Part shown: in pieces, positions 44,119 through 58,821 of the stretch | How positions within the stretch are numbered: position 1 is the first letter of the stretch | How the letters are laid out: each line of letters starts with the position of its first letter | Source of the DNA: an uncultured Gemmatimonadales bacterium | GTDB lineage: Bacteria; Gemmatimonadota; Gemmatimonadetes; Gemmatimonadales; GWC2-71-9 | Direction of reading: 5' to 3' | DNA: 64,000 nucleotides | NCBI GenBank assembly: GCA_963779755.1 | Contig: CAVZZO010000003.1 | Coordinates: forward strand, 672,001-736,000 | Position numbers and translations under genes: made by a program | The notes under the pieces: model-generated | What the model saw: only the letters and a program-made list of their open reading frames with translations | Databases searched by the model: none | Told to the model about the DNA's origin: nothing

Positions 44119-44226
44119 CCGCCTACATTCCTGGGGAAGAACACGGGGAAATCTTAGGTCCCGTGTTCTGAGCAAATCGTGAAGGCATCAGGAAGCCCCC
44201 TTCTTGCACCTGACTCGACCAGACCG

Positions 44227-45453: not shown

Positions 45454-45521
45454 CTCCGGCCTGAAGGAATCTTCATGAAAGGTTCCTCCCCGATTCACCG
45501 CGCTTTCCTAGGTTGACGATC

Positions 45522-46253
45522 ATGAAGATTCTCGTCGTGGAGGACGACCGGAAGGTCGCCGGGTTCATTGAGCAGGGGTTGAAAGAGGAGGGCTACGTGG
45601 TCGATGTCGCCCCCGACGGCGATGAGGCGACCATGCTGGCCCACGTCTACGACTACGATGTCATCCTGCTCGATGTCGTGCTGCCCAAGAAGAACGGGTT
45701 TCAGGTGGCGGCGGAGCTGCGGCGGGAAGGCCGCAATACCCCCGTCCTGATGCTCACCTCGCGAGACAGCACCGAAGACGTGGTGCGGGGGCTGGATGCG
45801 GGGGCCGACGATTACCTGGCCAAGCCGTTCAAGTTCGACGAGCTGCTGGCGCGCATCCGCGCCCTGCACCGTCGCGGCGGCGCGGCGCGGGTGGAGGTGC
45901 TGCAGTTCGGGCCCATTGCCATGGACCGCCTGCGGCATATCTGCACCGTGAACGGCCAGCAACTCGACCTGACCCCCAAGGAATTCCAGTTGATGGAGTT
46001 CTTCCTGCTCCATCCGGAGCAGGTGGTCCGCCGGACGACCTTGCTGGAGAAGGTCTGGGACATGCACTTCGATCCCGAAAGCAACGTGGTGGATGTGCAT
46101 GTCGGAAATCTGCGCCGCAAGCTGGCCCAGCTGGCCGGCCGGAATCTGATAGTGACGGTGCGTGGTGTCGGCTTCTCGCTGCGCATCGGCGCGCAATCGG
46201 GCAACGGCAGGGACGCCGCCGCAGAGGAGAGAGCGGCCGCCGCACGCAAGTGA
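45522..46253 (+). CDS. OmpR/PhoB family response regulator (CusR-like)
   Basis: ILVVEDD, LLDVVLP, GADDYLAKPF, LTPKEF, SNVVDVHV, TVRGVGF. Confidence 0.95.
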   Translation: MKILVVEDDRKVAGFIEQGLKEEGYVVDVAPDGDEATMLAHVYDYDVILLDVVLPKKNGFQVAAELRREGRNTPVLMLTSRDSTEDVVRGLDAGADDYLAKPFKFDELLARIRALHRRGGAARVEVLQFGPIAMDRLRHICTVNGQQLDLTPKEFQLMEFFLLHPEQVVRRTTLLEKVWDMHFDPESNVVDVHVGNLRRKLAQLAGRNLIVTVRGVGFSLRIGAQSGNGRDAAAEERAAAARK

Positions 46254-48082
46254 TCCGCCTGCCGCGCGCGGCGCTCTGGCCCGCCGCGGCAATCCTCTTC
46301 CTGGCCGTGGGCGCTTCCGCCTACGGCCTGTTTGCTGCCCCCGCCGCCGCGCAGCGCATCTGGCTTGCCGGGCTCATCCTGACCGGGGCCCCCGTGGTAT
46401 GGCGCACCGCCCGGGGCGTGCTGGCCGGCCGGTGGGCGGCCGACCTGGTGGCCGCCCTCGCGATCGTCGCCGCGGCCGCCATCAATCATCCCTTCCCCGG
46501 GCTGATCATCGTCCTGATGCAGACCGGCGGCGAGGCCCTGGAACGCTTTGCCGAGGGCCGCGCCTCCCGCGCCGTGCGGGAGCTGGAATCCATGGCTCCC
46601 CGTACCGCCCACCGGATGGACAGCGGCGGGGTTACCGATGTGGCGGTCGAGACGGTACAGGCCGGCGACCGGCTGCTGCTCCGGCCCGGCGAGATGATCC
46701 CCTGCGACGGCGTGGTGGTGGACGGCCGTTCCCATGTCGATGTCAGCCGCATCACCGGCGAACCGGTGCCGCTCACGGCCGTGCCGGGCGTCCGGCTGCT
46801 GAGCGGCAGCCTCAACCAGGAAGGCGCGCTCACCTTTCAGGCCACCGCCCGCGCCGGCGAGAGCCAGTACGCCCGGATTGTCGAGCTGGTGCGGACCGCG
46901 CAGGCCAGCAAGTCGCCCTTCCAGCGCATGGCGGACCGTTACGCGGTGTGGTTCACGCCGTTCACCCTGCTGGTCTGTGGCGTCGCCTACGCGCTCTCGG
47001 GCGACTGGACCCGGGTGCTGGCGGTGCTGGTGGTGGCCACGCCGTGTCCCCTGATTCTGGCGGCGCCGGTGGCCGTGATCGGGGGCATCAACCGCGCGGC
47101 CCGGCAGATGATAGTCTTTCGCACCGGCGGCGCGCTGGAGCAGCTGGGCCGGGTAACCCTGGCGGTCTTTGACAAGACCGGCACCCTGACGGTCGGCCAT
47201 CCCAGCGTCGCCAGCATCGAGCCGGCCAACGGGTTCGCCCGGGACGAGGTCCTGCGCTACGCCGCGGCCCTGGAACAGCAGTCTTCGCACGTGCTGGCCA
47301 CCCCGGTGGTCCGGGCGGCCGTGGGGATGGGCCCTCTGCCGCCGGTCCGCGAGGTACGCGAGTCTCCCGGCGAAGGCATCAGCGGCGAGGTCGAAGGCCG
47401 CCCGGTACGGGTCGGCGGCTGGGCCTTCCTGGAGCATCACGACCCGGCGGCCACCCATGCCCTGGCGGGAATGAAGGACGGGGACGGGCTCCGGGCCTAC
47501 GTCGCGATCGGCGGGCGGGCGGCCGGGGTGATCACCTACGCCGACGCCCTGCGACCGGGTCTCCCCGGGTTCTTCGCCGAGCTCCACCGGCTGGGAGTGC
47601 GCCGGACCATCCTCCTCTCGGGCGACCGGCAGGAGAACGCCGACGCCGTGGCGCGCAGCCTCGGGCTGGATGAGGCGCGGGGCAACCTGCTGCCGGCGGA
47701 AAAGGCACAGCTGGTGGGCGACCTGCAGGCAGCCGGTGACCGGGTGGTGATGCTGGGAGACGGCACCAACGACGCTCCCGCGCTCAGCACGGCCCGGGTA
47801 GGGGTGGCGCTGGCCTCCGGCGGCGGCGGCATCACCGCCGAAGCCGCCGATGTGGTCATCCTGGCGGACGATCCCACCCGCCTCGCGGCGGCGATCGCCA
47901 TCAGCCGCCGCACCCTGGGGATTGCCAGGCAGAGCCTCTGGGCCGGCATGGGACTCAGCATGGTGGCGATGCTGTTCGCCGGCGCCGGTCACATTCCGCC
48001 CACCGCGGGCGCCCTGCTGCAGGAGGCCATCGACGTGGCGGTGATCGTCAATGCGTTGCGGGCGGCGGGGTCGGGCCGGTAG
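46250..48082 (+). CDS. Heavy-metal P-type ATPase, P1B-5 subtype
   Basis: TGE, TPCP, DKTGT, GDGTND, QSLWAGMGLSMVAM (Qx4Gx3Sx3M), PPTAGALLQEAID. Confidence 0.9.
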   Translation: MIRLPRAALWPAAAILFLAVGASAYGLFAAPAAAQRIWLAGLILTGAPVVWRTARGVLAGRWAADLVAALAIVAAAAINHPFPGLIIVLMQTGGEALERFAEGRASRAVRELESMAPRTAHRMDSGGVTDVAVETVQAGDRLLLRPGEMIPCDGVVVDGRSHVDVSRITGEPVPLTAVPGVRLLSGSLNQEGALTFQATARAGESQYARIVELVRTAQASKSPFQRMADRYAVWFTPFTLLVCGVAYALSGDWTRVLAVLVVATPCPLILAAPVAVIGGINRAARQMIVFRTGGALEQLGRVTLAVFDKTGTLTVGHPSVASIEPANGFARDEVLRYAAALEQQSSHVLATPVVRAAVGMGPLPPVREVRESPGEGISGEVEGRPVRVGGWAFLEHHDPAATHALAGMKDGDGLRAYVAIGGRAAGVITYADALRPGLPGFFAELHRLGVRRTILLSGDRQENADAVARSLGLDEARGNLLPAEKAQLVGDLQAAGDRVVMLGDGTNDAPALSTARVGVALASGGGGITAEAADVVILADDPTRLAAAIAISRRTLGIARQSLWAGMGLSMVAMLFAGAGHIPPTAGALLQEAIDVAVIVNALRAAGSGR

Positions 48083-48223
48083 CAACGTCTACCCATGCGT
48101 CCCTCGGCGGGCGCGGCGATCATCGCGGCTATTGCCTGCTCCGGCCCGCGGTGGGAGATTTGCCCGCTGATACGCTGCGGAAGCCCCGGTTCACACCTTT
48201 ACTCCTTCATTCCTGAGTCTTCC

Positions 48224-48715
48224 ATGAATCTCTCCCCCGCGCATCTCCACATCATGATTAACCACCTGCCCATCATCGGGATGCCCATCGTGGTACTGAT
48301 CCTGCTGATCGGGCTGCTGCGCCAGTCGGCCGAGGTCACGAAGCTGGCGCTGGGGCTCACGGTGCTGCTCGCTCTGGGAACGATTCCCGTCTATCTGACG
48401 GGCGACCCGGCACACGAGCAGGTGGAAAATGAAGCCTGGTATCCCCGGCAGATCGTGGAGGAGCACGAAGAGAAGGCGGAAACGGCCTTCATCGCCGTCC
48501 TGGTCACCGGCGGTATCGCGGTGGTGGCGTTGTGGCTCATGTGGCGCAGCGCGCGGCTCCGGAACGGCGCCGCGCTGCTGGTCCTGGTGGCGCTCTTGGC
48601 CAGCTGCGTGCTGCTGGCCCTGGCCGCGCTGGAGGGCGGCGAGATCCGGCATACGGAGGTGAGGCCGGGAGCGGAGGCGCCGCAGGGATTGCCGCCGGCG
48701 GAACCGGCAAGCTGA
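48224..48715 (+). CDS. Four-TM membrane protein with several His (DUF2231-like)
   Basis: HLHIMINHLP, EEHEE, GGEIRH; four hydrophobic segments. Confidence 0.7.
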   Translation: MNLSPAHLHIMINHLPIIGMPIVVLILLIGLLRQSAEVTKLALGLTVLLALGTIPVYLTGDPAHEQVENEAWYPRQIVEEHEEKAETAFIAVLVTGGIAVVALWLMWRSARLRNGAALLVLVALLASCVLLALAALEGGEIRHTEVRPGAEAPQGLPPAEPAS

Positions 48716-48777
48716 GGGGTGAAGCGTCAGGGGTGAGGCGTGAGGCGTGCCACGCCTGATCCCTCACCCTTTACCCT
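48714..48777. repeat. Inverted heptamer arms (GAGGSGT)n ... (CACSCCT-like)n between convergent genes
   Basis: gaggggt gaagcgt caggggt gaggcgt gaggcgt / cacgcct gatccct caccctt taccc. Confidence 0.8.
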
Positions 48778-49837
48778 GTTGTGCCCTCCCCACCAGCATC
48801 CCGAACAGCTCCTTCCAGCGCGTGGGCGCGTAGTGGCCTCGGAGCCAGTCCCGTGCGTCGGGCGCGGCGCCCAGCCGGCGCAGGAACGCGCGGTAGCCCG
48901 TTTCGCCCAGGTGGCCGAAGACGAAGCGATTGGCGAAGGACGCGCGCAGCAGGCCGCCACAGCGGGTCTCCCACCACTCCCGGTAACGCGCGGGCTCTCC
49001 CTCCAGCAACGCGCGCGCGGCAAAATGCCCCGTGAGCATTGCCATCCGGAGCCCGAACCCCCAGAGCGCGTCCTGGAATCCGGCGGCCTCGCCCACCACC
49101 AGGCGGCCGTCCTCCCGCCAGCGGGGGGCAGACCGCACATGCCCGGTGCCGCCGAAGCGGCGCGCGCCGTCCAGGCTCACGTCCGTTCGCTCCTGGAAGA
49201 AGCGGACGGTACGATCGAGATAGACGGCGTAGCGGGCGCAGTCCTGGAAGAGGCAGGTGGCCAGCGTGGCCCGGCCGCGGCACACGACCAGATAGGCGTA
49301 CCCCTTGGGCGCCAGGCGGTCGGAGAGCACGCCCAGGACCATATCGGGCAGCGAGGTGGGAAAGAGGTACCCCACTACGATGGCGAATGAGCCCCGCGGC
49401 CCGGTGGCGAGAATGCCGGGCTGATCCGGCGGCATGGCCTCGCCGAAGCGCACCTCGACTCCGGCATCGAGCGCCTGGCGCAGCAGGCCGGCATCGAGCC
49501 GCCCCGGCTCCGCCCCGCGGCGGATCATGTAGAACAGCGGTGACGATGACCGGTAGGCCCATGCCCGTCCGCGCCCGTCATAGATGCAGGCCTCGCGGAA
49601 CGGGGTCACGTCGAAGGCGGCGGTGATCCCGATCCGTTCCAGCTCCTCCAGCGCGTCGTCGCGGGTGGAGTAGTTCTCGATGCCCTGGAAGTCGCCGTGG
49701 AAGCGGGCGGCCAGCCGGGGCCGCCGCTCGTGGATCAGCGCGGGGACGCCCGCGCGGGCGGCGGTCAGGGCCGCCGAGATGCCGGCGGGGCCGGCGCCGC
49801 CGATATGCAGCAGATCGGGCGCCGGCGCCCGCGCCAT
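48764..49837 (-). CDS. NAD(P)/FAD-dependent oxidoreductase (geranylgeranyl-reductase-like)
   Basis: GGAGPAG, GYAY, VGEAAGFQD..WGFG. Confidence 0.8.
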   Translation of the reverse strand: MARAPAPDLLHIGGAGPAGISAALTAARAGVPALIHERRPRLAARFHGDFQGIENYSTRDDALEELERIGITAAFDVTPFREACIYDGRGRAWAYRSSSPLFYMIRRGAEPGRLDAGLLRQALDAGVEVRFGEAMPPDQPGILATGPRGSFAIVVGYLFPTSLPDMVLGVLSDRLAPKGYAYLVVCRGRATLATCLFQDCARYAVYLDRTVRFFQERTDVSLDGARRFGGTGHVRSAPRWREDGRLVVGEAAGFQDALWGFGLRMAMLTGHFAARALLEGEPARYREWWETRCGGLLRASFANRFVFGHLGETGYRAFLRRLGAAPDARDWLRGHYAPTRWKELFGMLVGRAQQGKG

Positions 49838-49839
49838 GG

Positions 49840-50925
49840 TCAGGTGGTCCGGCTGAGCGAGGCCCGGCGCTCCTGGTAGGTGTCACGCGCGGCCACGATG
49901 GCATCTACCAGCGGCTCGTTGCCGAACCGGACCGGGTCGGTGGCGGGGAGTCCGGTGAGCCGGGTGGCGTCCTCGCAGGCGCGCCGCGCCTGGGCCTCGG
50001 AGAGGTCATACGTATTGAGGCTGATGCCCAGCACCCGGGATGGGTGGACCATGCCGGCCGCCTGCTCGTACCACTCGACGTAACGGTCCAGCGGCGGGAT
50101 GGCCAGCCAGGCCGCGGCACGGTAGTCGCCGATATGCTGGCGGCTGGGCTGATGGCAGAGAATCATCCCGTCGGGGCAGCTGCCGTGCAGCAGCCCCAGG
50201 GTCACACCCGAGTAGCCGGGGTGGTTGATGCTGCCTTGCCCCTCGACCAGGACGATGTCGGCGTCGCGGCTGCCTTCCAGGACCAGGCGTTCCGCCGCGC
50301 CGGCGATGAAATCGGCCACAACCGCGTCCACCGCGATGCCCCAGCCTTCGATCATGATGCCGGTCTGCCCGGTGGCCACGAACCGGGTCCTCACCTGCCG
50401 CCGGTTGAGCTCGCGGGTCAGTTGGAGCTGGGCCGTCATCTTCCCCACGTTGCAGTCGGTTCCGACGGTCAGGATCACGTAGGGGTCCACCGCCTTGGCC
50501 TTCCCCGAGGCCACCGCCAGGTCGGCCGGCGGGCGCCGCAGGTCGTGCAGGGTGACGCTCCGTTCCCTGGCGCGGCGGGCGATCTCCGCATCGTCGGCCA
50601 GGAAGGTGTGCAGCCCGCTCCACAGCTCGCAGCCGGCATCGACCGCTTCCAGCAGCCAGGCGCGCCACTGTTCCGGCAGCCGCCCGCCCACCGGCGCGAT
50701 CCCGATGAGCACCGCGGTCGGCCCCAGGGCCAGGGCTTCCTTCATGGTGGCCACCACCGGGATGGGACCGCCGAAGCCCAGCACGTCCTGCGCCGTGCGG
50801 CCCGCCTTGCCGTGATCCACCACGGCCACGACCCGGTCGGGGAGATAGCGGATGACGGAGTTGGCCGTCTTGGAGAGGAGCGGATCGAAATCGCCGTCGG
50901 CGAGGATGACGTAGCGTGGGGGCAT
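49840..50925 (-). CDS. DUF1611 domain P-loop protein
   Basis: IGIAPVGGRLP, SGLH, VGTDCNVGKM, TGQTGI, VEGQGS, GLLHGS. Confidence 0.88.
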   Translation of the reverse strand: MPPRYVILADGDFDPLLSKTANSVIRYLPDRVVAVVDHGKAGRTAQDVLGFGGPIPVVATMKEALALGPTAVLIGIAPVGGRLPEQWRAWLLEAVDAGCELWSGLHTFLADDAEIARRARERSVTLHDLRRPPADLAVASGKAKAVDPYVILTVGTDCNVGKMTAQLQLTRELNRRQVRTRFVATGQTGIMIEGWGIAVDAVVADFIAGAAERLVLEGSRDADIVLVEGQGSINHPGYSGVTLGLLHGSCPDGMILCHQPSRQHIGDYRAAAWLAIPPLDRYVEWYEQAAGMVHPSRVLGISLNTYDLSEAQARRACEDATRLTGLPATDPVRFGNEPLVDAIVAARDTYQERRASLSRTT

Positions 50926-51060
50926 GAGGGATGAGGAACCAGGCATCAGGAATCAGGGATTCACTTCGAAGCCGCAACGGGCGCAGCGGATACCGCTACC
51001 AAGATACCCCTGGCGGCAGTCCCTCGCGTCCTTCGCGGCTTCGTGGTTGGCCGTTACCCA

Positions 51061-51819
51061 CTACTTCTCTTCGTGCTCTTCTTCCACCTCGGCGTCGTGC
51101 ACGTCCTCCGCGCCCTTGCCGAGCTGCTTGGCTTTCTCGCCGCTGCTCAGCATGCCCATCTTCTGCTTGAGCTCGAGCAGTTGCTGGTCGGCGCTGCCGT
51201 GATATTCCAGCGCCTCGAATTGGCGGCTCAGCGAATCGCCGGAGAACTCTTCCTGCAGCTCCGCGGCGGCCAGCGCCTTGCGCTCGGTGGCTTCGATCTT
51301 CTCCGCCATGCGTTCGAACGATTCGAAGGCGCTCTTGTCGGAGAGGCCGGACATGGTCTCCTGGATGCGCTGCTGGGCCTCGGCTCGTCGCGCCCGCGCC
51401 ACCAGGATGTTCTTCTTGCGCTTGGCTTCCTCGATCTTGTCGTTGAGCTGGCGTAGAGAGCCCTTGAGCGCTTCGGTTTCCGCCTTGTGGCGCATCCAGG
51501 TCTCGTGCAGCTGCTGGGCGCCCTGCATGGCTTCGTTGTAGCGCAGCAGCGCCTGCTTGGCCAGATCGTCGCGGTTTTCCTGCACCGCCAGCATGGCGCG
51601 GCGCTCCCAATCGTCCGCCTGTTTCTTCATGGTGGCGGCGTCGGCCTGAAGTTTCTTTTCATCGGCGATGGCGGAGGCCACCTGTTGCTTGGCCTTGGCC
51701 AGCTGGCCCTTCATATCCACGATCAGCTGGTTCAGCATCTTCTCGGGGTTCTCGGCCCGGGAGATGAGATCGTTGAGATTCGACCGGACCATTGTCGAGA
51801 GACGGTCAAAGATCCCCAT
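51061..51819 (-). CDS. pspA: PspA/IM30 family protein (bacterial ESCRT-III)
   Basis: N-terminal amphipathic MGIFDRLSTMVRSNLN, AENPEKML, DDLAKQAL, FERMAEKI, long coiled coil. Confidence 0.95.
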   Translation of the reverse strand: MGIFDRLSTMVRSNLNDLISRAENPEKMLNQLIVDMKGQLAKAKQQVASAIADEKKLQADAATMKKQADDWERRAMLAVQENRDDLAKQALLRYNEAMQGAQQLHETWMRHKAETEALKGSLRQLNDKIEEAKRKKNILVARARRAEAQQRIQETMSGLSDKSAFESFERMAEKIEATERKALAAAELQEEFSGDSLSRQFEALEYHGSADQQLLELKQKMGMLSSGEKAKQLGKGAEDVHDAEVEEEHEEK

Positions 51820-51822
51820 GGC

Positions 51823-52218
51823 TTACTTCTCCCGGTAGGGCGCCAAGGCGCTCAGGTGCGATCCGAGGGCGAGGGTCATGGAATCGAAGCTCGCCTCGAA
51901 TTCGTTGAAGTCCAGATTTTCCAGCTCGAGGGTGTCGGTCAGCACGACCTTGTTTCCCTCCAGGCCGTAACTGCCGTGGACCAGGTCGCGGACGTTGAAC
52001 TCCAGCAGCTGGCGGTAGAGTTCGCCCCGGCGCGGCTCGCCGGCGGGGAGCTCCATGACCTGTACCCGCAGGAGCACTACCGGCGGGGCATAGTTCACTA
52101 CCACCTCGGCACCGCTCTGGGTCTTCAGCAGCCAGAGGTTGGGCTCCAGCTCCTGCACCTCCACGGTTCCGCTGTCCAGGCGGCCGAGGTAGGACTCGAG
52201 ATCATCTTTGGTGATCAT
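51823..52218 (-). CDS. CesT/YbjN-like (type III secretion chaperone fold) protein
   Basis: 131 aa, acidic, LYRQLLEFN...HGSYGL...LENLDFNEF; 3 bp upstream of pspA. Confidence 0.72.
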   Translation of the reverse strand: MITKDDLESYLGRLDSGTVEVQELEPNLWLLKTQSGAEVVVNYAPPVVLLRVQVMELPAGEPRRGELYRQLLEFNVRDLVHGSYGLEGNKVVLTDTLELENLDFNEFEASFDSMTLALGSHLSALAPYREK

Positions 52219-52318
52219 CGTTCGCGCTCCTCTACAGGATGCTGCGTATGGGCTCCGTCGGTCAGGAGAATCTAATAGGAGCCATCGGCTCCCAGCTATC
52301 AGCATCGAACGGGCGGCC

Positions 52319-52588
52319 TCAGTCCTCGGGCCTCTTCCCCGTGGTTAGCATTCGCTCGGCGAAATCCACCCGCTCCTCCAGCTCCAGCAGCCGGGCGCGC
52401 TCCGCCTCCAGCTCGGCCACCTGGCCTTCCAGGGCTGCGAGCCGCTGCTGCACCTCCGGCCCGATCTTGCCCGGCTCCCCCTTGATCCAGATGGCCCGGG
52501 TAGCGGCGATCGCCGCGTACGCGCCCACGGGAATGAACACGACCGCGACGGCGATGATCAGCAGCTTGACCAGGGTCTCGAACTCCAT
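52319..52588 (-). CDS. Small TM + coiled-coil protein, array member 7
   Basis: N-terminal TM; LEERVDFAERML. Confidence 0.85.
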   Translation of the reverse strand: MEFETLVKLLIIAVAVVFIPVGAYAAIAATRAIWIKGEPGKIGPEVQQRLAALEGQVAELEAERARLLELEERVDFAERMLTTGKRPED

Positions 52589-52592
52589 GCGT

Positions 52593-52676
52593 TCAGTCCT
52601 TCTTGCCGGCGGCGAGCAGTCGTTCGGCGAAATCGATCAGCGTGGTGGTAGCCACATCGGCCATGATGGGATCCAT
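52593..52676 (-). pseudogene. Internally deleted array paralog (27 aa)
   Basis: MDPIMADVATTTLIDFAERLLAAGKKD*: an N-terminus fused directly to the shared DFAERLL motif. Confidence 0.7.
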
Positions 52677-52679
52677 GGC

Positions 52680-53033
52680 TCACCCCTCTCCCCGGGGGAC
52701 GGCGGCGCTGTCCCGACCCCGCGCCAACAACCGCTCCGCGAAATCCACCCGCTCCTCCAGCTCGACCAGCCGGGCCCGCATGTCCTCGATTTCCGCCGCG
52801 TTCTCTTCCGGAAGCTGGCCGGCGCCTCCCCGCGCCGAGCCGTCGATCCACCGCGCCAGCGCCTTGCCTACCGGGCCGCGCAGCGTGATGGTGGCGGCAA
52901 TGGCGGCGGCGATCATGGCCGGGACCGCAAAGTCCTCGCCGATCACCACTGAAAGGGCGATGAAGGCGCCGATCAGCCCCAGCCCGATGGCACCGACGGC
53001 GAAGCCGAGTCCCGAGGGCAGTTGGCGGTCCAT
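52680..53033 (-). CDS. Small 2-TM + coiled-coil protein, array member 6
   Basis: RGPVGKALARW; LEERVDFAERLL. Confidence 0.88.
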   Translation of the reverse strand: MDRQLPSGLGFAVGAIGLGLIGAFIALSVVIGEDFAVPAMIAAAIAATITLRGPVGKALARWIDGSARGGAGQLPEENAAEIEDMRARLVELEERVDFAERLLARGRDSAAVPRGEG

Positions 53034-53049
53034 ATGCAGTCTCCGGTCC

Positions 53050-53334
53050 TCAGTCCCCGGCCTTCACGGCATTACGCGGCTGCGCCAGAAGGCGCTCGGC
53101 GAACTCCAGCCGCTCTTCCAGCTCGTAGACCCGCTGCTCCAGCCCCTGCATCGCCTCCACCCGGCCGTGCAGTTCCTCCAGCTCGGTGCTGACGGCCGGA
53201 TCGCCTCCGCCCCGCTTACCCCGCACCCAGGCCTCGACCGCCCGCCCCAGGGGGCCGCGGAGGATCAGCACCGCGGAGGCGCACACCGCAAGCATGGTGG
53301 TGACGAAGACAGGCGCGATATCTCCAGGCGGCAT
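53050..53334 (-). CDS. Small TM + coiled-coil protein, array member 5
   Basis: RGPLGRAVEAW; LEERLEFAERLL. Confidence 0.88.
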   Translation of the reverse strand: MPPGDIAPVFVTTMLAVCASAVLILRGPLGRAVEAWVRGKRGGGDPAVSTELEELHGRVEAMQGLEQRVYELEERLEFAERLLAQPRNAVKAGD

Positions 53335-53345
53335 GGGGGTTCTTC

Positions 53346-53612
53346 TCAGTCTTCGGGTTTCGTGGCCTTCGGCGGCTGTGCCAGCAGACGTTCGGCAAAT
53401 TCCAGCCGCTCTTCCAGTTCATAGACCCGCTGTTCCAGCTCCTGCACCGATTCCAGCCGGGCCCGCATGTCCTCCAGCTCCGGTTCGCTCAGGCCGGCGC
53501 CACGCTTCCGCCCGCCCAGGAGGTTCTCCAGCGCTCGGCCCAGCGGGCCCCGCAGGACCAGCACCCCCGCGGTGCACACCGCGATCAGGGCGATCACATC
53601 TCCCGGTTGCAT
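53346..53612 (-). CDS. Small TM + coiled-coil protein, array member 4
   Basis: Start MQPGDV at 53612 after AGGAGG; RGPLGRALENL; LEERLEFAERLL. Confidence 0.88.
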   Translation of the reverse strand: MQPGDVIALIAVCTAGVLVLRGPLGRALENLLGGRKRGAGLSEPELEDMRARLESVQELEQRVYELEERLEFAERLLAQPPKATKPED

Positions 53613-53628
53613 CGTTGCCCCCTCCTGA

Positions 53629-53943
53629 TCAGGGCTCGAGCTGCCTGGGCCGCGGCTCCCGGGCGAGTATCCGTTCGGCGAACTCCAGCCGCTCCTCCAG
53701 CTCGGCCACCCGCGTCTGCCCTGCTTCCAGCTGCGCCAGACGGGCCCGGAGATCTTCCAGCTCTTCCCGCACATCCTGATCGCCGGGATGCCGGCCTTCC
53801 AGCCGGCGGCCGATGGCCCGGGCGATGGGCCAGAGGATGAGCAGCCCGGCCACAATGGCCACCACGATGAGCAGGGCCGTGGTTCGCGGATCCATGGGCA
53901 GGGAGGGGACCGGCGGCACCTGAACCGTTTGCAGCGTCAGCAT
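53629..53943 (-). CDS. Small TM + coiled-coil protein, array member 3
   Basis: WPIARAIGRRL; LEERLEFAERIL. Confidence 0.88.
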   Translation of the reverse strand: MLTLQTVQVPPVPSLPMDPRTTALLIVVAIVAGLLILWPIARAIGRRLEGRHPGDQDVREELEDLRARLAQLEAGQTRVAELEERLEFAERILAREPRPRQLEP

Positions 53944-53958
53944 GTGAATCCCCCGGCC

Positions 53959-54210
53959 TCAGTCCTGCACCCCGGGGAGCTGTTCCGGCTCCCGGCGCTG
54001 GGTCAGCAGCCGCTCGGCGAAATCCATTCGTTCATGCAGTTCGTTCATCTCGCCACGCAACCGGTCCAGCTCTTCAATCACGGCGGGATCCTCCGCCGGG
54101 GTTGTCCCATGGCGAAGCCGCTCCGCCAGGGCCTTGCCCACGGGGCTGTACGCCAGAAGCAACGTGGTCCCCCCGCCGAAGATGAAGATGATCGCGAGTA
54201 TTCCTTCCAT
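53959..54210 (-). CDS. Small TM + coiled-coil protein, array member 2
   Basis: SPVGKALAERL; LHERMDFAERLL. Confidence 0.88.
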   Translation of the reverse strand: MEGILAIIFIFGGGTTLLLAYSPVGKALAERLRHGTTPAEDPAVIEELDRLRGEMNELHERMDFAERLLTQRREPEQLPGVQD

Positions 54211-54500
54211 CAGTGCGGTCCCGGAAGGCGCTCGGGCTGGGCGCGCTGCGCCAGCATCCGCTCGGTGAAATCCAGCCGTTCCTGCGTGTCGGCCAACTGT
54301 CCCTGCACGTCCTCCAGCTGTTCCCGCATCCAGGCCATTTCCTGCCGCAGCTCGTCGTCGTCCGCCGTCTTGCCCTGAAGCCTGCGGGCCAGCGCCTGAC
54401 CCACCGGGCCGGTGGCGATCTTCACCACGCCAAAGGTCAGACCGGCCATCATGAGGAGCCCGGTGATCATGCCAAAAATGGGGACCATCGCATCAGGCAT
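54210..54500 (-). CDS. Small TM + coiled-coil protein, array member 1
   Basis: GPVGQALARRL; TQERLDFTERML; preceded by GGAGG. Confidence 0.88.
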   Translation of the reverse strand: MPDAMVPIFGMITGLLMMAGLTFGVVKIATGPVGQALARRLQGKTADDDELRQEMAWMREQLEDVQGQLADTQERLDFTERMLAQRAQPERLPGPH

Positions 54501-54582
54501 CGCTCTCCTCCAGTTCCAGGACCCGCAGGAGCCCTCGGGAGGGCGGCACTCCTCCTCCCAGGGACCCCGGAACGAGGGACCA

Positions 54583-54608
54583 TACGGAAGGGTTGGTATA
54601 ATGTTTCA
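54583..54608 (-). promoter_or_regulatory. ECF sigma (sigma-W-type) promoter
   Basis: Exact TGAAAC-16 bp-CGTA, 82 bp upstream of the first array gene. Confidence 0.7.
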
Positions 54609-54625
54609 TGGAGAAACGGCCGGCG

Positions 54626-55510
54626 CTATTTCTGCCTGGAGCCCTTGAGCTGGATCAGCCGGTCTCTGGCCAGTTTCCGGCCGGTTGGGGTGGCAGCGAG
54701 CCCCCCTCCGGCCGTTTCCCGGTAGCGGACATCCATGTTCCGGCCGATTTCGCCCATGGTGTCGATCACCTCGTCCACCGGAATGGGAAATCCGATGCCC
54801 GCGAGCGCCATCTCTATGCCAGCCATGGCGATGGCTGATCCGGTCGCGTTCCGGTAGACGCAGGGGACCTCGACCAGACCACCCAGCGGATCGCAGATCA
54901 GGCCCAGGGTGCCCTGCATGGTGAGCGCGACGGCGTGGCCCGCCTGCTCCGCACTGCCGCCCAGCAGTTCGACACCGGCGGCGGCGGCCATGGCCGCCGC
55001 CGCACCCGTCTCCGCCTGGCAGCCGCCCTCGGCGCCCGAGAGGGAGGCCCGCACGGCCACCACCGCGCCCACCAGTCCGGCCGCCGCCAGGGCGAGCACC
55101 AGAGCCGTGTCGTCTGACTTCCGCTCATCCCCCAGGGCAATCAGGACCCCCGGCAGGACCCCGGCCCCGCCGGCGGTCGGGGCGGCGACGATCACCCCCA
55201 TGGCGGCATTCACCTCCTGCACCGCGAGCGCATTGGCAATCGCCCGGGTGAAGACCGTCCCGGCAAGCGGGCCACCAGGACCGCTCATCCGGGCGGCGTC
55301 GCCCCCCACCAGCCCGCTCACGCTGTAGAGATCGCCGGCCAGCCCCCGGCGAATCGCACCACGCATAACGTCCAGCGCGCGCGCCAGCCCCGCTTCCACC
55401 TCCTGGCGGGTGCGGAGGCCTTCGGCCGCCTCGGTCCGGAGGGCCAGTTCCCCGAGCGAGATCGCCTGAGCCGAGGCCTGCCCGATGGCTTCGCCCAGAG
55501 AGTCGAACAT
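54626..55510 (-). CDS. sdaAA: L-serine dehydratase, Fe-S-dependent, alpha subunit
   Basis: EVNAAMG, AAPTAG, SGAEGGCQAE, GLICDP..GLVEVPC, RETAGGGLA. Confidence 0.93.
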   Translation of the reverse strand: MFDSLGEAIGQASAQAISLGELALRTEAAEGLRTRQEVEAGLARALDVMRGAIRRGLAGDLYSVSGLVGGDAARMSGPGGPLAGTVFTRAIANALAVQEVNAAMGVIVAAPTAGGAGVLPGVLIALGDERKSDDTALVLALAAAGLVGAVVAVRASLSGAEGGCQAETGAAAAMAAAAGVELLGGSAEQAGHAVALTMQGTLGLICDPLGGLVEVPCVYRNATGSAIAMAGIEMALAGIGFPIPVDEVIDTMGEIGRNMDVRYRETAGGGLAATPTGRKLARDRLIQLKGSRQK

Positions 55511-56175
55511 CAGGCCACCCGGTCGATGGCGCGGACCACCCGGACGGCGGGAAGGTCGGCGATCGACTGCAGGGCCGCGGGAGTAAGGGGCGTGTCCATT
55601 TCGTATACGTGGATGGCTTCGCCGCCCTTCTGGCGGCGGGAAACCCGCATGGTGGCAATGTTCTCCCGTTCGCGGGACATGATCCCGCTGACGGCCGCGA
55701 CGATTCCCGGCTCGTCTTTGGCGACAAAGACCACGGTGGGAAGGGCGCCGGTGACCTCGACCGGGTAGCCATCGATACCGGTGATGACGATGCGGCCCGC
55801 CCCCACCGAGGAGCCCACCAGGGTCGAGTGGCGGCCCTCGCGGCTCACGGTCAGCCGGGCGGTGTTGGGATGATGGCTGCCCCGCAGCTTGGTGTTCGAA
55901 AAGGCCAGGTCCATCCCCGCCTCTTCCGCCAGCCGGATGCTCTCGCGCAGCCGTTCATCGTCCGGAGGGAAGCCCAGCAGGCCGCCGGCGATGGCCCGGT
56001 CGGTGCCGTGCCCCTGGCCGGTGCGGGCAAAGGAGCCGTGCAGCTCTACCCGGGCCTTCTCCGGCTGGCCGCCGGCCAGCCCCCGGGCAAAGAGGCCGAT
56101 CCGGCAGGCTCCCGCCGTATGGGACGAGGAGGGGCCGACCATGACCGGGCCAATGATGTCGAGGAGTGAGACCAT
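55510..56175 (-). CDS. sdaAB: L-serine dehydratase beta subunit (with ACT domain)
   Basis: GPVMVGPSSSHTAGA, GHGTD, HPNT, C-terminal ACT domain. Confidence 0.93.
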   Translation of the reverse strand: MVSLLDIIGPVMVGPSSSHTAGACRIGLFARGLAGGQPEKARVELHGSFARTGQGHGTDRAIAGGLLGFPPDDERLRESIRLAEEAGMDLAFSNTKLRGSHHPNTARLTVSREGRHSTLVGSSVGAGRIVITGIDGYPVEVTGALPTVVFVAKDEPGIVAAVSGIMSRERENIATMRVSRRQKGGEAIHVYEMDTPLTPAALQSIADLPAVRVVRAIDRVA

Positions 56176-56199
56176 GCCCGGAATCTAGTGCTGAACGGG

Positions 56200-56274
56200 G
56201 AGCGGTCGAGAGTCTCGAGAGGGTCGAGTAGATCGGACCTCGACCCTCTCGACCCCTTCGACCCCCTCGACCCA
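56200..56274. repeat. Inverted nonamer arms (GGTCGAG-type) ... (nnTCGACCC)4
   Basis: ggtcgagag tctcgagag ggtcgag / cctcgaccc tctcgaccc cttcgaccc cctcgaccc; same family as 13542. Confidence 0.85.
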
Positions 56275-56276
56275 GA

Positions 56277-56492
56277 CTAGATCACCTCGACCGCCCGGAC
56301 CGCGGCCAGCGACACCACGATCTCGGTCTCCTCGTCGCCCGCCGGCTTGAGATAGACCTCATGGGCGGCGACCTCAGGATCGACATTGGTGGGAACGCCG
56401 CTCACCGACTGACCGTCGGCGGTCTCAATGCGGACGGGCTGATCATTGTCACAGGCGTAGGTAAGGACGCGGATGATGTCGTCGTAGGTCAT
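56277..56492 (-). CDS. Small acidic hypothetical protein, possible Sm-like/SH3 fold
   Basis: 71 aa, GGGAGG RBS, one helix followed by beta-strand pattern. Confidence 0.65.
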   Translation of the reverse strand: MTYDDIIRVLTYACDNDQPVRIETADGQSVSGVPTNVDPEVAAHEVYLKPAGDEETEIVVSLAAVRAVEVI

Positions 56493-56515
56493 GGCGTCAA
56501 ACCTCCCGGGTTAGC

Positions 56516-56582
56516 GGGAACGGGGAAAGGGGAAAGGGGAAAGGGGAAAGGACGCTTCCCGCTTCCCCATTCCCTTTTCCCG
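56516..56582. repeat. Inverted heptamer arms (GGGAAAG)n ... (TTCCCnn)n
   Basis: gggaacg gggaaag gggaaag gggaaag gggaaag / cttcccg cttcccc attccct tttcccg; same family as 9705. Confidence 0.85.
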
Positions 56583-56586
56583 CCGT

Positions 56587-58821
56587 CTACTCCCCGCCCA
56601 GATGCTCCTCGATATATCCCGTAATCAGCTGGAAGAGGTGCACCCGGGTGTTCCCCCCGCTGATGCTGTGGGTGCGGTTGGGGTATTCCATCATCTGGAA
56701 GGGTTTGCCCGCCGCGACCAGGCTGTCTACCAGGGTCTGGGTATTCTGGTAGTGCACGTTGTCGTCGCCCGAGCCGTGGATGACCAGCAGGTCGCCCTTC
56801 AGTTGCCGCGCCAGGCCCAGCGGCGAGCCCTCCCGGTAGCCCTTGAGGTTGGTTTGCGGGAGCCCGTTGTAGCGCTCGGTGTAGACGTCGTCGTAGAAGC
56901 GCCAGTAGGTGACCGGCGCCACCGCTACCGCCATGCGGTAGACGTCGGGATGGCGGAAGATTGCGTTGAGCGTCATGAACCCGCCGTAGCTCCAGCCCCA
57001 GATGCCCACCCGGCTGGAATCCACGAAGGACCAGCGGCTGATGGCCCGCGCGGCCGCGCCCTGATCATGCGATTCGACCACGCCCATGTGGCCGTGGATG
57101 ATCTTGCGCCAGTCGCGGCCCCTGGCGCCGGTGCCGCGATTGTCCACACTGGCAACGAGATAGCCCTTCTGCGTCAGCATCAGGTGCCAGAGATATTGCT
57201 GGCCGCCCCAGGAATCCACCACCGTCTGGGAGCCGGGGCCACCGTAGACCTGGAAGAGGATGGGATACTGCTTCGTGGAATCGAAGTCCGCCGGCTTCAT
57301 GAGGTAGCCGTTGAGCCGGATGCCGCTGTCGATCGCCACCTGGAAAAACTCGGTGCTGCCCCGTTGCAGCCGGTCCAGCCGGGCGCGCAGGGTGTCGTTG
57401 GCTACCAGGGTGCGCGCCACACGGTGTTGCGGCAGCCGCACCAGCGTCAGCACCGGCGGATGTCCGAAGCTGGACCAGGTATGGAAGGCCCAGCGGCCAT
57501 CCGGCGAGATGTCATAGCCGTTGACGCCCGTCTGGTCCCGGGGAGTGACCCGTTCCGGCTTGCCCTTCCCATTGAGCCGGACCCGGTAGAGATAGCGCTG
57601 CGCCTGATTGTCCGGCGAGGCGAGGTAGTAGAGCCAGCCGGCCGTGGTATCGACGGCCTCTACCCCGAGGAGGTCTGAGGAGCCGGGAGTCAGGAGCTGC
57701 AGGGCTCCACTCTCCCTGGTCCCGAGATAGGCGTGATTCCACCCGTCGCGCTCGCTGAGCCAGAGGAAGCGTTTGCCACCCTCCAGCCAGACCATGGGAT
57801 CCACCAGCTCGACCCAGGTGGAATCGCCCTCGGTGAGGATCGGCCGGACCGGTCCGCTGGCGGCATCGGCCAGGAAGAGCACCAGGGTATCCTGCAGCCG
57901 GTTCAGCTGCTGCACGTACAGCTCGCTGGAGTTCGCGGCCCAGTCCATCCGGGCGGGATAGTGGTTGCGGGGATCGCCGGGCAGATCGAGCCAGCGGGTC
58001 TCGCCCGCCCCGTCGGCATTCACGACCCCGATACGTGCCGCCGAGTTGCTCTCGCCCGCCTTGGGGTACTGGACGGGGACGATGTAGGAATAGAGTGAAT
58101 CGGTGTTATCGATCAGGTCGAAATTGCGGACGCTGTCGGCGTTGAGCTGCCAGAAGGCGATGTGCCGCCCGTCGGGGCTCCAGCGCCAGCCGTCGCGCAG
58201 GTCCAGCTCCTCCTCATAGACCCAGTCGAAGGTGCCGTTGATGATGGTGCGCGAGCCGTCGCGGGTGAGCCGGGTGATGGCGCCGCCGGCCAGATCCTCC
58301 ACGTACAGATCGTGCGCCCGCACGTAGCCCACCCGGTTCCCGTCGGGCGAGAACTTGGCGAACATGAGGGTCGAAGGCTCGGCGTCGGGGCCGCCCAGCC
58401 GGCGCAATTTCCAGCTGCCGAGGTCCAGCACCCAGTAGTCGCCCCGGGTGTTCTGCCGCCAGACCCGCTTGGAGTTGGTGTAGACCAGAAGCCGGCTCCG
58501 GTCGGGCGACCACTGATAGCCCTGCACCTCCAGCGGGACGGAATCGCCGGCGGGAACGAGCCGGGCGGCCGGGACCAGCACCGTTCTGGCGCCCGTGGCG
58601 CTCTCGTACCGGACCAGGTCCTTGCCCTTCCCGCTGTCCGGCTTCTCCAGCGTGGTGTACGCCTTTCCCCCTTCCAGCCAGCGCGCGGGCCCGAACGACT
58701 GCGGGTTGAACTCGCTGGAGCCGTAGATGCGGGAGACGGTGAGGCGACTGGAGTCGGTCTGCTGGGCGAGTGCCGGAGCGGCGAGCAGGCAGAGAAGCGC
58801 GACGATGGTGGAGGTGCGCAT
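56587..58821 (-). CDS. S9B family dipeptidyl-peptidase IV
   Basis: Signal peptide, DWVYEEE, GWSYGG, DDNVH, HSI. Confidence 0.95.
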   Translation of the reverse strand: MRTSTIVALLCLLAAPALAQQTDSSRLTVSRIYGSSEFNPQSFGPARWLEGGKAYTTLEKPDSGKGKDLVRYESATGARTVLVPAARLVPAGDSVPLEVQGYQWSPDRSRLLVYTNSKRVWRQNTRGDYWVLDLGSWKLRRLGGPDAEPSTLMFAKFSPDGNRVGYVRAHDLYVEDLAGGAITRLTRDGSRTIINGTFDWVYEEELDLRDGWRWSPDGRHIAFWQLNADSVRNFDLIDNTDSLYSYIVPVQYPKAGESNSAARIGVVNADGAGETRWLDLPGDPRNHYPARMDWAANSSELYVQQLNRLQDTLVLFLADAASGPVRPILTEGDSTWVELVDPMVWLEGGKRFLWLSERDGWNHAYLGTRESGALQLLTPGSSDLLGVEAVDTTAGWLYYLASPDNQAQRYLYRVRLNGKGKPERVTPRDQTGVNGYDISPDGRWAFHTWSSFGHPPVLTLVRLPQHRVARTLVANDTLRARLDRLQRGSTEFFQVAIDSGIRLNGYLMKPADFDSTKQYPILFQVYGGPGSQTVVDSWGGQQYLWHLMLTQKGYLVASVDNRGTGARGRDWRKIIHGHMGVVESHDQGAAARAISRWSFVDSSRVGIWGWSYGGFMTLNAIFRHPDVYRMAVAVAPVTYWRFYDDVYTERYNGLPQTNLKGYREGSPLGLARQLKGDLLVIHGSGDDNVHYQNTQTLVDSLVAAGKPFQMMEYPNRTHSISGGNTRVHLFQLITGYIEEHLGGE

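Follow-up and report, generated by a model that had tools for sequence, protein, structure and literature searches.

Which function can be assigned to a tandem array of small, closely related membrane proteins encoded next to a single pspA gene in an uncultured member of the Gemmatimonadota, a little-studied but abundant soil phylum? To our knowledge, how the bacterial ESCRT-III proteins (PspA, Vipp1, LiaH) are directed to the right place on a membrane has been little clarified beyond E. coli and B. subtilis. The reading preferred here, to which we give an even chance of being right, is that the array locus represents a form of the Psp (PspA/ESCRT-III) envelope-stress system peculiar to this lineage and placed under ECF control, in which PspB-like proteins would recruit or regulate PspA.

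The locus is part of a 64-kb stretch of DNA (the window), in which all the array genes, together with cesT and pspA, occupy the minus strand. Its features, in descending coordinates, are the following:

54583..54608, minus strand: ECF-sigma-type promoter, TGAAAC-N16-CGTA, the sole match in the 64-kb window
54210..54500, minus strand: P1, array gene of subfamily D, 96 aa, one TM helix
53959..54210, minus strand: P2, array gene of subfamily A, 83 aa, FGGG in the TM helix
53629..53943, minus strand: P3, array gene of subfamily B, 104 aa, Pro-rich periplasmic N-terminus
53346..53612, minus strand: P4, array gene of subfamily E, 88 aa from the ATG at 53612
53050..53334, minus strand: P5, array gene of subfamily E, 94 aa, local duplicate of P4
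52680..53033, minus strand: P6, array gene of subfamily G, 117 aa, two hydrophobic segments
52593..52676, minus strand: relic or TM-less copy, 27 aa, retaining the ...IDFAERLL... motif (direct sequence reading)
52319..52588, minus strand: P7, array gene of subfamily M, 89 aa, devoid of the GP.G.A juxtamembrane segment
52269..52275, minus strand: TTAGATT, a conserved -10-like element within the 100 bp between P7 and cesT, occurring nowhere else in the window
51823..52218, minus strand: CesT/Tir-like chaperone-fold gene, 131 aa, PF22550 CesT_Tir_1
51061..51819, minus strand: pspA (PspA/IM30, ESCRT-III superfamily), 252 aa, PF04012 PspA_IM30

A sequence-only reading of this DNA had described seven consecutive same-strand paralogues of 83-117 aa, lying 0-16 bp apart, all with a conserved C-terminal motif and six of them with a juxtamembrane segment, followed by a CesT-like gene and pspA. 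The seven paralogues are readily found as minus-strand ORFs spanning 52319-54500, and the tight spacing holds for most pairs, the intervals from P1 to P6 being, in order, -1, 15, 16, 11 and 16 bp (the start of P2 and the stop of P1 overlap by 1 nt), but P6 and P7 are separated by 91 bp. This interval contains the 27-aa relic, an eighth copy that the count of seven had overlooked, and similar TM-less fragments, grouped as cluster R, are present in other arrays. For P4, a longer ORF starting from a TTG would overlap P3. All seven paralogues can be aligned, with invariant columns G, E, R, F, E, R and L from which the ER.xF.ER.L motif derives, and the juxtamembrane segment (G/S/W)P..(K/R/Q)A. occurs in six of them, P7 being the exception, in agreement with the earlier description. 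The GC3 (0.79-0.91) and GC2 (0.41-0.53) values of the array genes are like those of the flanking real genes.

The two genes following the array were also correctly recognized. The CesT-like gene matches PF22550 with 94.1 bits (cut-off 27, E 8.7e-27), and pspA, located 3 bp further on the same strand, matches PF04012 with 158.5 bits (cut-off 33.9, E 2.5e-46) over residues 2-220 of 252. The AF2 model of the CesT-like protein (pLDDT 93.2) displays the predicted alpha-beta-beta-beta-alpha-beta-beta-alpha fold, and Foldseek relates it to type III secretion chaperones and PA14_16140 with TM scores of 0.70-0.79, individual values being 0.74 for SicP (1jyo), 0.79 for VecA (9uwz), 0.73 for CesT (5z38), 0.77-0.78 for PA14_16140 (8q8o) and 0.68 for YbjN (6vu7). 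PspA itself shows a mean column identity of 79% among 60 orthologues. The CesT/Tir-PspA pair (YjfI-YjfJ type; PA3732/BacA-PA3731 in P. aeruginosa), in which a CesT-fold gene similarly stands immediately upstream of the PspA gene, is a described conserved core (PMC11237479; Ravi et al. 2024), around which larger operons with band-7/flotillin, spermine synthase or ATP-grasp genes have been reported. None of these larger operons includes a comparable series of small single-pass proteins, and the string 'Gemmatimonad' occurs 0 times in the main text and one supplement of PMC11237479; no description of the array was found in the literature. The claim of an undescribed system accordingly stands for the array and fails for the pair: what is new is the array with its two cis elements, and the CesT/Tir-PspA pair is already known.

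A profile built from the seven sequences matches at least 5203 protein clusters at E<=1e-3, which places the array far beyond chance. Among the 120 matches listed, none of the family members carries a Pfam domain and all the organism-named ones belong to the Gemmatimonadota; the source names attached to unannotated members (such as PilO, UbiJ or FtsB) are spurious. The acidic cytoplasmic helix is closed by the near-invariant ELEERLDFAERLL motif, strictly conserved in 456 of 519 copies. Across 150 members, the consensus end reads ELEERLDFAERLLAQ.R....L, and the E, ER, DF, ER and L positions are at least 90% conserved, compared with an overall column identity of 17%. A single TM helix is predicted in 422/489 copies and the positive-inside rule is satisfied in 455/488, with a net charge of -0.82 on the N side versus +2.19 in the 15 residues past the TM helix, whose distance to the motif is constant (38-50 aa). 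The AF2 model of P2 (mean pLDDT 81) comprises helices 2-21, 23-34 and 42-76. From the charge statistics and this model, the array proteins are predicted to be oriented N-out/C-in with a PspB-like architecture, as had been suggested, and both the family alignments and the subfamily comparison bear out the idea of variable membrane ends combined with a constant C-terminal motif.

The resemblance to PspB concerns the size (~75-100 aa), the N-terminal TM helix with a proline and a basic stretch after it, the cytoplasmic helix finishing in E-R-(I/L)-x-x-(L/A)-E-(R/x)-(I/L)-L, and the association with pspA. In contrast, the array motif contains DF, and the family consensus does not contain the C-terminal signature ILDAEHPxWR (...LE.ILD.E.P.WR) that the PspB alignments show. 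Moreover, PspB is a single-copy protein, for which only duplicates are mentioned as published copy variation (PMC11237479), whereas the array copies are differentiated. A kinship with PspB, as proposed by the sequence-only reading, is weakly supported by the sequence comparisons. In its favour, the PspB HMM reaches at least 12 bits with 75/486 members versus 4 reversed sequences (segment-shuffled controls 0, 0 and 2), and the family HMM does so with 24/119 PspB sequences versus 0 reversed ones (segment-shuffled 0, 0 and 1). With hhalign, subfamily A aligns to a diverse PspB profile at 69.9% over 64 collinear columns (reversed control 17.9%), the whole family reaching 19.6% (reversed control 13.2%). 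In the Atlas, the nearest named cluster to P2 and P3 is PspB (0.80 and 0.77), a value to be taken as a lead only. Against it, the array proteins fall below every cut-off of the curated PspB models (PF06667, TIGR02976 and PRK09458), the best scores among the seven being 16.7 bits for a cut-off of 51.7 (TIGR02976) and 13 for 25.6 (PF06667). PF06667 appears at E<=1 in only 8 of 150 members (best E 0.023), and the commonest weak Pfam matches are generic coiled-coil families. Filing the family as PspB was rejected, the reciprocal signal being weak and under every curated cut-off.

The organization of the canonical pspF-pspABC operon also differs, since the array genes are located upstream of pspA, and neither PspC nor PspF gave a match when 46 window ORFs outside the ribosomal-protein and RNA polymerase block were scanned against Pfam. 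To this extent their stated absence from the window is confirmed, and pspC and pspF were not found among the conserved flanks of the loci either, so that signalling cannot simply follow the scheme of E. coli.

The tight linkage of array and pspA, anticipated from the single locus, was confirmed in a survey sample of 79 species-level loci, whose related genomes share ancestry, so that locus counts do not amount to independent events. Arrays comprise 2-14 copies per locus, all on the same strand, and PspA is encoded directly downstream in 63/79 loci; 13 of the 16 others stop at a contig edge and the remaining 3 are solitary copies, two of which carry a relaxed ECF-like promoter. The order of the subfamilies is fixed (among the pair orders, 915 follow the majority direction, 34 run against it and 13 are interleaved), subfamily A being the most widespread (72/80 loci). 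The conserved flanking genes are uvrA, a DPP-IV peptidase gene, sdaAB/AA, DUF1611 and cysS. A CesT gene intervenes between array and PspA in 57/63 loci, and the 6 loci devoid of CesT retain the motif (35/49 strict matches), which indicates that the partner of the motif is not CesT alone. The arrangement is found here only in Gemmatimonadota, where it is phylum-wide.

Two cis elements accompany the locus. The -35 element of the ECF-type promoter begins 108 nt before the ATG of P1, in a window where 0.06 matches to the pattern are expected by chance and one is observed. A TGAAAC/CGTA element occurs within 300 nt upstream of 60/75 arrays (expected 0.0085) and, in a further 4, at or within an over-called first ORF, giving 60-64/75 arrays; the spacer measures 17 nt in 57 cases and 16 nt in 6. 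This pair corresponds to the -35 and -10 boxes of the ECF sigma factors that B. subtilis uses in envelope stress, and the array promoters fit the reference ECF consensus, i.e., -35 (T)GAAAC and -10 CGT(A/C) with a spacer of ~16-17 nt, as presented in PMC5758882, where the sigma-W type promoters show the same TGAAAC, CGTA and 16-17 nt spacing. Unlike sigma-W type regulons, no cognate sigma factor gene was found among the window ORFs scanned, nor any sigma, anti-sigma or other regulator gene in the conserved neighbourhood. Sigma dependence and stress induction of the array would be expected from such a promoter. In 54/61 loci the second element, TA[GC]ATT, is found no more than 120 nt upstream of cesT. 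Rare codons spell it out within the last array gene, TTA GAT TTC encoding it in 15/51 last array genes versus 3/417 other array genes. Since the 100-bp gap holds this conserved -10-like element, cesT-pspA probably also has a separate promoter, which points to an expression of PspA partly independent of the array.

Starting from this anatomy, linkage and gene order, the two elements and the predicted topology, the preferred scheme would operate as follows. The ECF-class promoter would drive the 2-14 array genes (seven here). In each predicted product, a short periplasmic N-terminus precedes a TM helix, in some cases two, after which a basic amphipathic juxtamembrane helix leads through a short linker to the acidic cytoplasmic helix ending in the motif. 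The CesT-like protein and PspA are encoded downstream, probably with the help of their additional promoter. The differentiated membrane and periplasmic ends may report on, or localize to, different membrane states, whereas the shared cytoplasmic helix would offer a common interface for the mutual association of the array proteins, and through it they would recruit or release PspA at the membrane; we infer a physical contact between them and PspA. The CesT-like protein would handle PspA as in other CesT/Tir-PspA pairs. LiaI-LiaH similarly consists of small membrane proteins co-expressed with a PspA homologue, but the array proteins match no LiaI/LiaF family in Pfam.

Other functions can be considered. 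The array proteins could act alone, as stress-induced homo- or hetero-oligomeric coiled-coil bundles that stabilize or organize the membrane and reside beside cesT-pspA merely by belonging to a shared regulon. An invariant helix would let the proteins bind one another just as well as a partner shared by all, the three solitary copies stand away from PspA, two of them with their relaxed promoter, and cesT-pspA seems to own its -10-like element. The best PDB profile match of the family, full-length KcsA (3pjs, TM2 and C-terminal four-helix bundle, E 0.0049), points in the same direction, and so do the next ones, coiled coils at the C-terminus of bacterial sodium channels that serve as parallel oligomerization modules. 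We nevertheless hold this account to be rather unlikely, taking into account the adjacency of PspA in 63 of the 66 judgeable loci, despite otherwise diverged intergenic DNA, and the PspB-like signal, which leads to a family known for acting together with PspA. The same channel match could be read as indicating that the proteins build small pores or channels, as bundles of viroporin, holin or KcsA-tail type, whose leak PspA counteracts, and the glycine-rich TM helices of subfamily A (FGGG) would agree with it. The likeness to KcsA and NaV tails, a TM helix followed by an ...ER.D..ER.L... helix with parallel oligomerization, is an analogy of weak score limited to a generic TM-plus-helix region, and the array proteins possess neither a pore domain nor pore-lining polar residues or selectivity motifs. 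A toxic function, in addition, ill suits a conserved chromosomal core module located beside housekeeping genes, and such pores appear very improbable.

The array proteins might also be signalling parts, sensing membrane or periplasmic cues and controlling an ECF sigma pathway or the polymerization of PspA, for instance through sequestration of PspA or of its chaperone. In E. coli, PspBC controls PspA-PspF and offers an analogue. The PspB-like architecture and sequence signal, the diversified extracytoplasmic and TM ends and the ECF-type promoter are all consistent with this role, which is made distinctly unlikely by the lack of any regulator gene found in the conserved neighbourhood and by copy numbers of up to 14, many for a signalling input.

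The recruiting or regulating role preferred here admits a bolder form, a tentative proposal that we would expect to fail rather than to hold. In the Gemmatimonadota, up to 14 differentiated, fixed-order, ECF-induced PspB-like single-pass proteins would constitute a combinatorial adaptor set, forming mixed coiled-coil hubs via one invariant cytoplasmic helix, and every hub would contribute a different membrane or periplasmic sensing end, nucleating or releasing PspA polymers at particular kinds of membrane damage. If true, these adaptors would add to PspA targeting a layer with several inputs, for which no Psp, Lia or Vipp1 system has a known counterpart. The present analysis defines a large, currently unannotated protein family and provides two directly testable regulatory elements, and the combination of one PspA with a variable number of helix-sharing, small partner-like proteins offers a natural variant series for the targeting and regulation of PspA.

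On the minus strand, from 54500 down to 51061, seven small genes of 83-117 aa (P1 to P7), distributed among subfamilies designated A to R, are followed by a 131-aa gene and a 252-aa gene. Together with the flanking elements, they form a conserved module of the Gemmatimonadota, in which an ECF-type (extracytoplasmic-function sigma class) promoter, 2-14 PspB-like proteins in fixed order, a -10-like element, a CesT-like gene and pspA follow one another in an operon-like arrangement.

Features of the module in the window
54583-54608, minus strand: ECF-type promoter, TGAAAC-N15-18-CGTA, single occurrence in the 64-kb window (chance 0.06)
54210-54500, minus strand: P1, array gene, subfamily D
53959-54210, minus strand: P2, array gene, subfamily A
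53629-53943, minus strand: P3, array gene, subfamily B
53346-53612, minus strand: P4, array gene, subfamily E
53050-53334, minus strand: P5, array gene, subfamily E
52680-53033, minus strand: P6, array gene, subfamily G
52593-52676, minus strand: 27-aa ORF reading ...IDFAERLL..., without a membrane helix
52319-52588, minus strand: P7, array gene, subfamily M
52269-52275, minus strand: -10-like TTAGATT, single occurrence in the window, in the 100-bp gap before cesT
51823-52218, minus strand: CesT-like gene
51061-51819, minus strand: pspA

The array of seven paralogues with its CesT-like gene and pspA, as proposed in the sequence-only reading, is borne out by the ORFs, by the alignment of the proteins and by the matches of the last two genes to PF22550 CesT_Tir_1 (E 8.7e-27) and PF04012 PspA_IM30 (E 2.5e-46), respectively. 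The codon-position GC of P1-P7 is that of real genes, with a GC3 of 0.79-0.91 in DNA of 68% GC. The spacing of 0-16 bp claimed for the array holds for the other neighbours (-1 to 16 bp) but not for P6 and P7, which are separated by 91 bp containing the overlooked 27-aa ORF, a relic or TM-less eighth array copy. Fragments akin to this ORF (cluster R) are present in at least six other arrays. Invariant columns G, E, R, F, E, R and L of the alignment form the C-terminal motif ER(L/V/M)(D/E)F(A/T)ER(L/M/I)L, which all seven proteins share as had been stated; likewise, six of the seven were counted with (G/S/W)P..(K/R/Q)A. as their juxtamembrane segment.

Depending on the subfamily, the array proteins contain one TM segment by hydropathy (422 of 489 copies) or two (66 copies, from subfamilies C and G, including P6). 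Net charge averages -0.82 on the N-terminal side of the TM helix and +2.19 over the 15 residues that follow it; in 455 of 488 copies, the charges fit a predicted N-out/C-in topology. The distance from the TM helix to the beginning of the motif is constant at 38-50 residues, and a tail of about 14 residues comes after the motif. For P2, an AlphaFold2 model based on 76 relatives consists of a TM helix (residues 2-21), a juxtamembrane helix (23-34) and a last helix (42-76), with a mean pLDDT of 81 that rises to 89-98 in the last helix. A likeness of the motif to PspA's own FERM(A/E)EK helix was dismissed on visual inspection, the two being in different registers.

With E<=1e-3 as the threshold, a profile built from the seven proteins, used to score the 8000 candidates sharing most words, retrieved at least 5203 protein clusters. 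None of the 120 matches listed carries a Pfam domain; their source names are either "hypothetical" or evidently spurious (PilO, UbiJ, FtsB, MotE), and all organism-named matches among those listed belong to the Gemmatimonadota. In contigs representing one genome per species, 474 stretches were confirmed, the best 79 of which (loci L001-L079) all come from Gemmatimonadota, mostly Gemmatimonadales. A search for longer, fused forms returned ten matches; the six examined revealed no credible domain fusion and look like read-through or frameshift joins of adjoining copies or of a neighbour. P0250 and P0249, in which a PadR or thioredoxin domain is connected to a family copy via low-complexity linkers, look like read-through calls, but hint that PadR or thioredoxin genes neighbour solitary family copies in some genomes.

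The 61 arrays whose two ends are both visible contain 2 to 14 copies, seven being the commonest number. Clustering of 519 copies yielded the subfamilies A to R, which recur across species in the same order, e.g., H J D D A A L B K E C I C N O in long arrays, A P B F or D A E G F in short ones, and D A B E E G M in the window. Where two subfamilies co-occur, their order is that of the majority in 915 cases, that of the minority in 34 and interleaved in 13, in loci that share ancestry, such that locus counts here and elsewhere do not represent independent events. Local duplicates, i.e., neighbours of the same subfamily, account for 55 of 439 adjacent pairs. Subfamily A, to which P2 belongs, is the most widespread (72 of 80 loci) and possesses a strikingly conserved TM helix, MEGILAI.FIFGGGT. 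These patterns still show the array paralogues to be old, stably inherited and non-interchangeable, rather than the outcome of a recent runaway duplication.

Six-frame ORFs of the 79 loci were searched with the family HMM and with the PspA and CesT-like proteins of the window. In 63 loci, the array is immediately followed by pspA in the same orientation; among the 16 others, 13 reach a contig edge and three (L065, L076, L078) consist of a single solitary copy. Of the 63 loci, 57 have a CesT-like gene between the array and pspA, and in the remaining six (L037, L048, L056, L064, L067, L074) the interval is too small to accommodate one. The strict motif nevertheless persists in 35 of the 49 copies of these six loci, the others being near variants, and its role thus cannot be the binding of the CesT-like protein alone. 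The model of the CesT-like protein (pLDDT 93.2) matches the folds of the type III secretion chaperones SicP, VecA, ExsC, SycT and CesT, of YbjN and of PA14_16140/BacA with TM scores of 0.7-0.79; BacA is the CesT-like protein encoded next to a PspA homologue in P. aeruginosa. Solitary copies away from PspA are recorded for L065 (3846-3872), L078 (2412-2438) and L067 (3304), two of the three with a relaxed CGAAAC-N17-CGT(A/C) upstream; an F-type copy adjoins uvrA in L078 and precedes the main array by 4.3 kb in L067.

The conserved flanks of the arrays are housekeeping genes, namely uvrA, a DPP-IV/S9 peptidase gene and a 71-aa ORF upstream, with sdaAB-sdaAA in about half of the loci, and a DUF1611 gene and cysS downstream. 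In 62 of 71 loci, the 71-aa ORF (56277-56492, minus strand in the window), which has no Pfam match, precedes the array, directly adjoining it in 33 and separated from it by sdaAB-sdaAA in 29, the window included. An Rfam search over 48000-58000 returned only sub-threshold miRNA-like matches, on both strands of one hairpin (56512-56587). The hairpin is long, separates the DPP-IV peptidase gene from the 71-aa ORF, and probably represents a terminator or some other structured element of the intergenic DNA. No regulator, PspC, PspF, LiaF-like or sigma gene was found among the window ORFs scanned, in agreement with the reported absence of pspC and pspF. The plus strand at 44179-48079 carries consecutive genes for a GAF histidine kinase, a response regulator of the OmpR type and a P-type ATPase, next to a tandem universal-stress-protein gene on the opposite strand (43261-44175), and no link between the genes of 43261-48079 and the array is evident.

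With respect to the likeness to PspB put forward earlier, the array proteins remain below the cut-offs of the curated models: TIGR02976 gave at best 16.7 bits against its cut-off of 51.7, and PF06667 gave 13 bits against 25.6. At E<=1, PF06667 matched just 8 of 150 family members and generic coiled-coil families were matched more often; the PspB ending ILDAEHPxWR is absent from the family. A diverse PspB set was assembled from 279 clusters at E<=1e-3, of which 118 full-length representatives were used along with the query. Aligned to this set by hhalign, the whole family reached 19.6% (reversed control 13.2%), and subfamily A reached 69.9% over 64 collinear columns spanning the TM helix through the C-terminal helix (reversed control 17.9%). 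At 12 bits or more, the PspB HMM recognized 75 of 486 family members vs. 4 reversed sequences and 0, 0 and 2 shuffled ones, and the family HMM recognized 24 of 119 PspB sequences vs. 0 reversed and 0, 0 and 1 shuffled; residues were permuted separately inside TM and non-TM segments. Both groups follow the pattern E-R-(I/L)-x-x-(L/A)-E-(R/x)-(I/L)-L, and certain PspB sequences read ERIEALERLLEAEHP. The nearest named neighbour in a language-model Atlas was a PspB cluster for P2 (0.80) and P3 (0.77), values that serve as leads only. An alignment to enterobacterial PspB, at 59.7% over 12 columns only, fell to 11.3% with the refined family alignment and was not relied on. From these comparisons, the likeness stands as one of design, in that the family is PspB-like but not a demonstrable member, and it is possibly a very distant relative.

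Two cis elements accompany the array genes. The first base of the ECF-type element lies 108 nt before the start codon of P1. Of the 75 arrays with enough upstream sequence, 60 have a TGAAAC/CGTA element in the 300 nt ahead of them (expected 0.0085 per 300 nt), and 60 of its 68 occurrences in 2.39 Mb, both strands considered, occupy this pre-array position; four further elements are found at or just inside an over-called first ORF, or before the main array of L067. Spacers of 17 nt (57 cases) prevail over those of 16 nt (6 cases), and the surrounding intergenic DNA is otherwise diverged among loci. TGAAAC and CGTA correspond to the -35 and -10 elements of the envelope-stress ECF sigma factors of B. 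subtilis, CGTA being typical of sigma-W (PMC5758882). A second TGAAAC-N-CGTA is located inside the array, before the last gene(s), in L048 (10794) and L064 (10818), both devoid of cesT.

The other element, TA[GC]ATT, is present in 54 of 61 loci in the 120 nt preceding cesT, in most cases at a distance of 49-67 nt to the start codon. In arrays whose last gene abuts cesT, the element falls inside the L-D-F codons of that gene, read as TTA GAT TTC with a TTA leucine codon that is rare here. This spelling is used by 15 of 51 last array genes vs. 3 of 417 other array genes, a bias that reflects selection on the DNA itself; most simply, it points to a second, internal promoter of cesT-pspA, which TTAGATT and its counterparts probably are. 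A terminator reading of the TTAGATT stretch was dropped because no consistent hairpin accompanies the motif in other loci; in the 100-bp gap itself, a consensus scan and folding (z = -0.91) gave no convincing terminator. The consensus promoter and terminator scan also returned a sigma-70-like site in P1 and a terminator-like one in P7, at or below shuffle expectation.

The best reading of the module, to which we assign about an even chance, is an ECF-induced array of PspB-like proteins that would recruit or release PspA, by a presumed contact, with the help of the CesT-like protein. An ECF sigma factor would switch on the array during envelope stress, the differentiated TM and periplasmic ends would position or tune the individual proteins, and the invariant cytoplasmic helix would offer a common interface both for mutual assembly and for the recruitment or release of PspA. 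The CesT-like protein may work on PspA, an action proposed for other CesT/Tir-PspA pairs (PMC11237479). A complex prediction of PspA with the cytoplasmic part of P2 (residues 22-83), run without controls, gave a score of 0.01 (mark 0.32) that speaks neither for nor against a contact. The main rival, possible but distinctly less probable, holds that the array proteins self-assemble and affect the membrane without contacting PspA; the best PDB profile match (E 0.0049), to the part of KcsA that comprises TM helix and four-helix bundle, weakly favours it. A signalling role of the array proteins appears unlikely, and the formation of pores very improbable, compared with the PspA-recruiting or -releasing array.

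Regarding novelty, the claim of an undescribed system must be narrowed, since the CesT/Tir-PspA pair and PspB duplicates have already been published (PMC11237479); the main text of that paper and its one text supplement do not mention Gemmatimonadota. The array itself has no description in the literature searched, which covered few subscription journals, and an earlier mention is possible. The module provides a large unannotated protein family together with two testable regulatory elements, both elements coming in addition to what the sequence-only reading had found.
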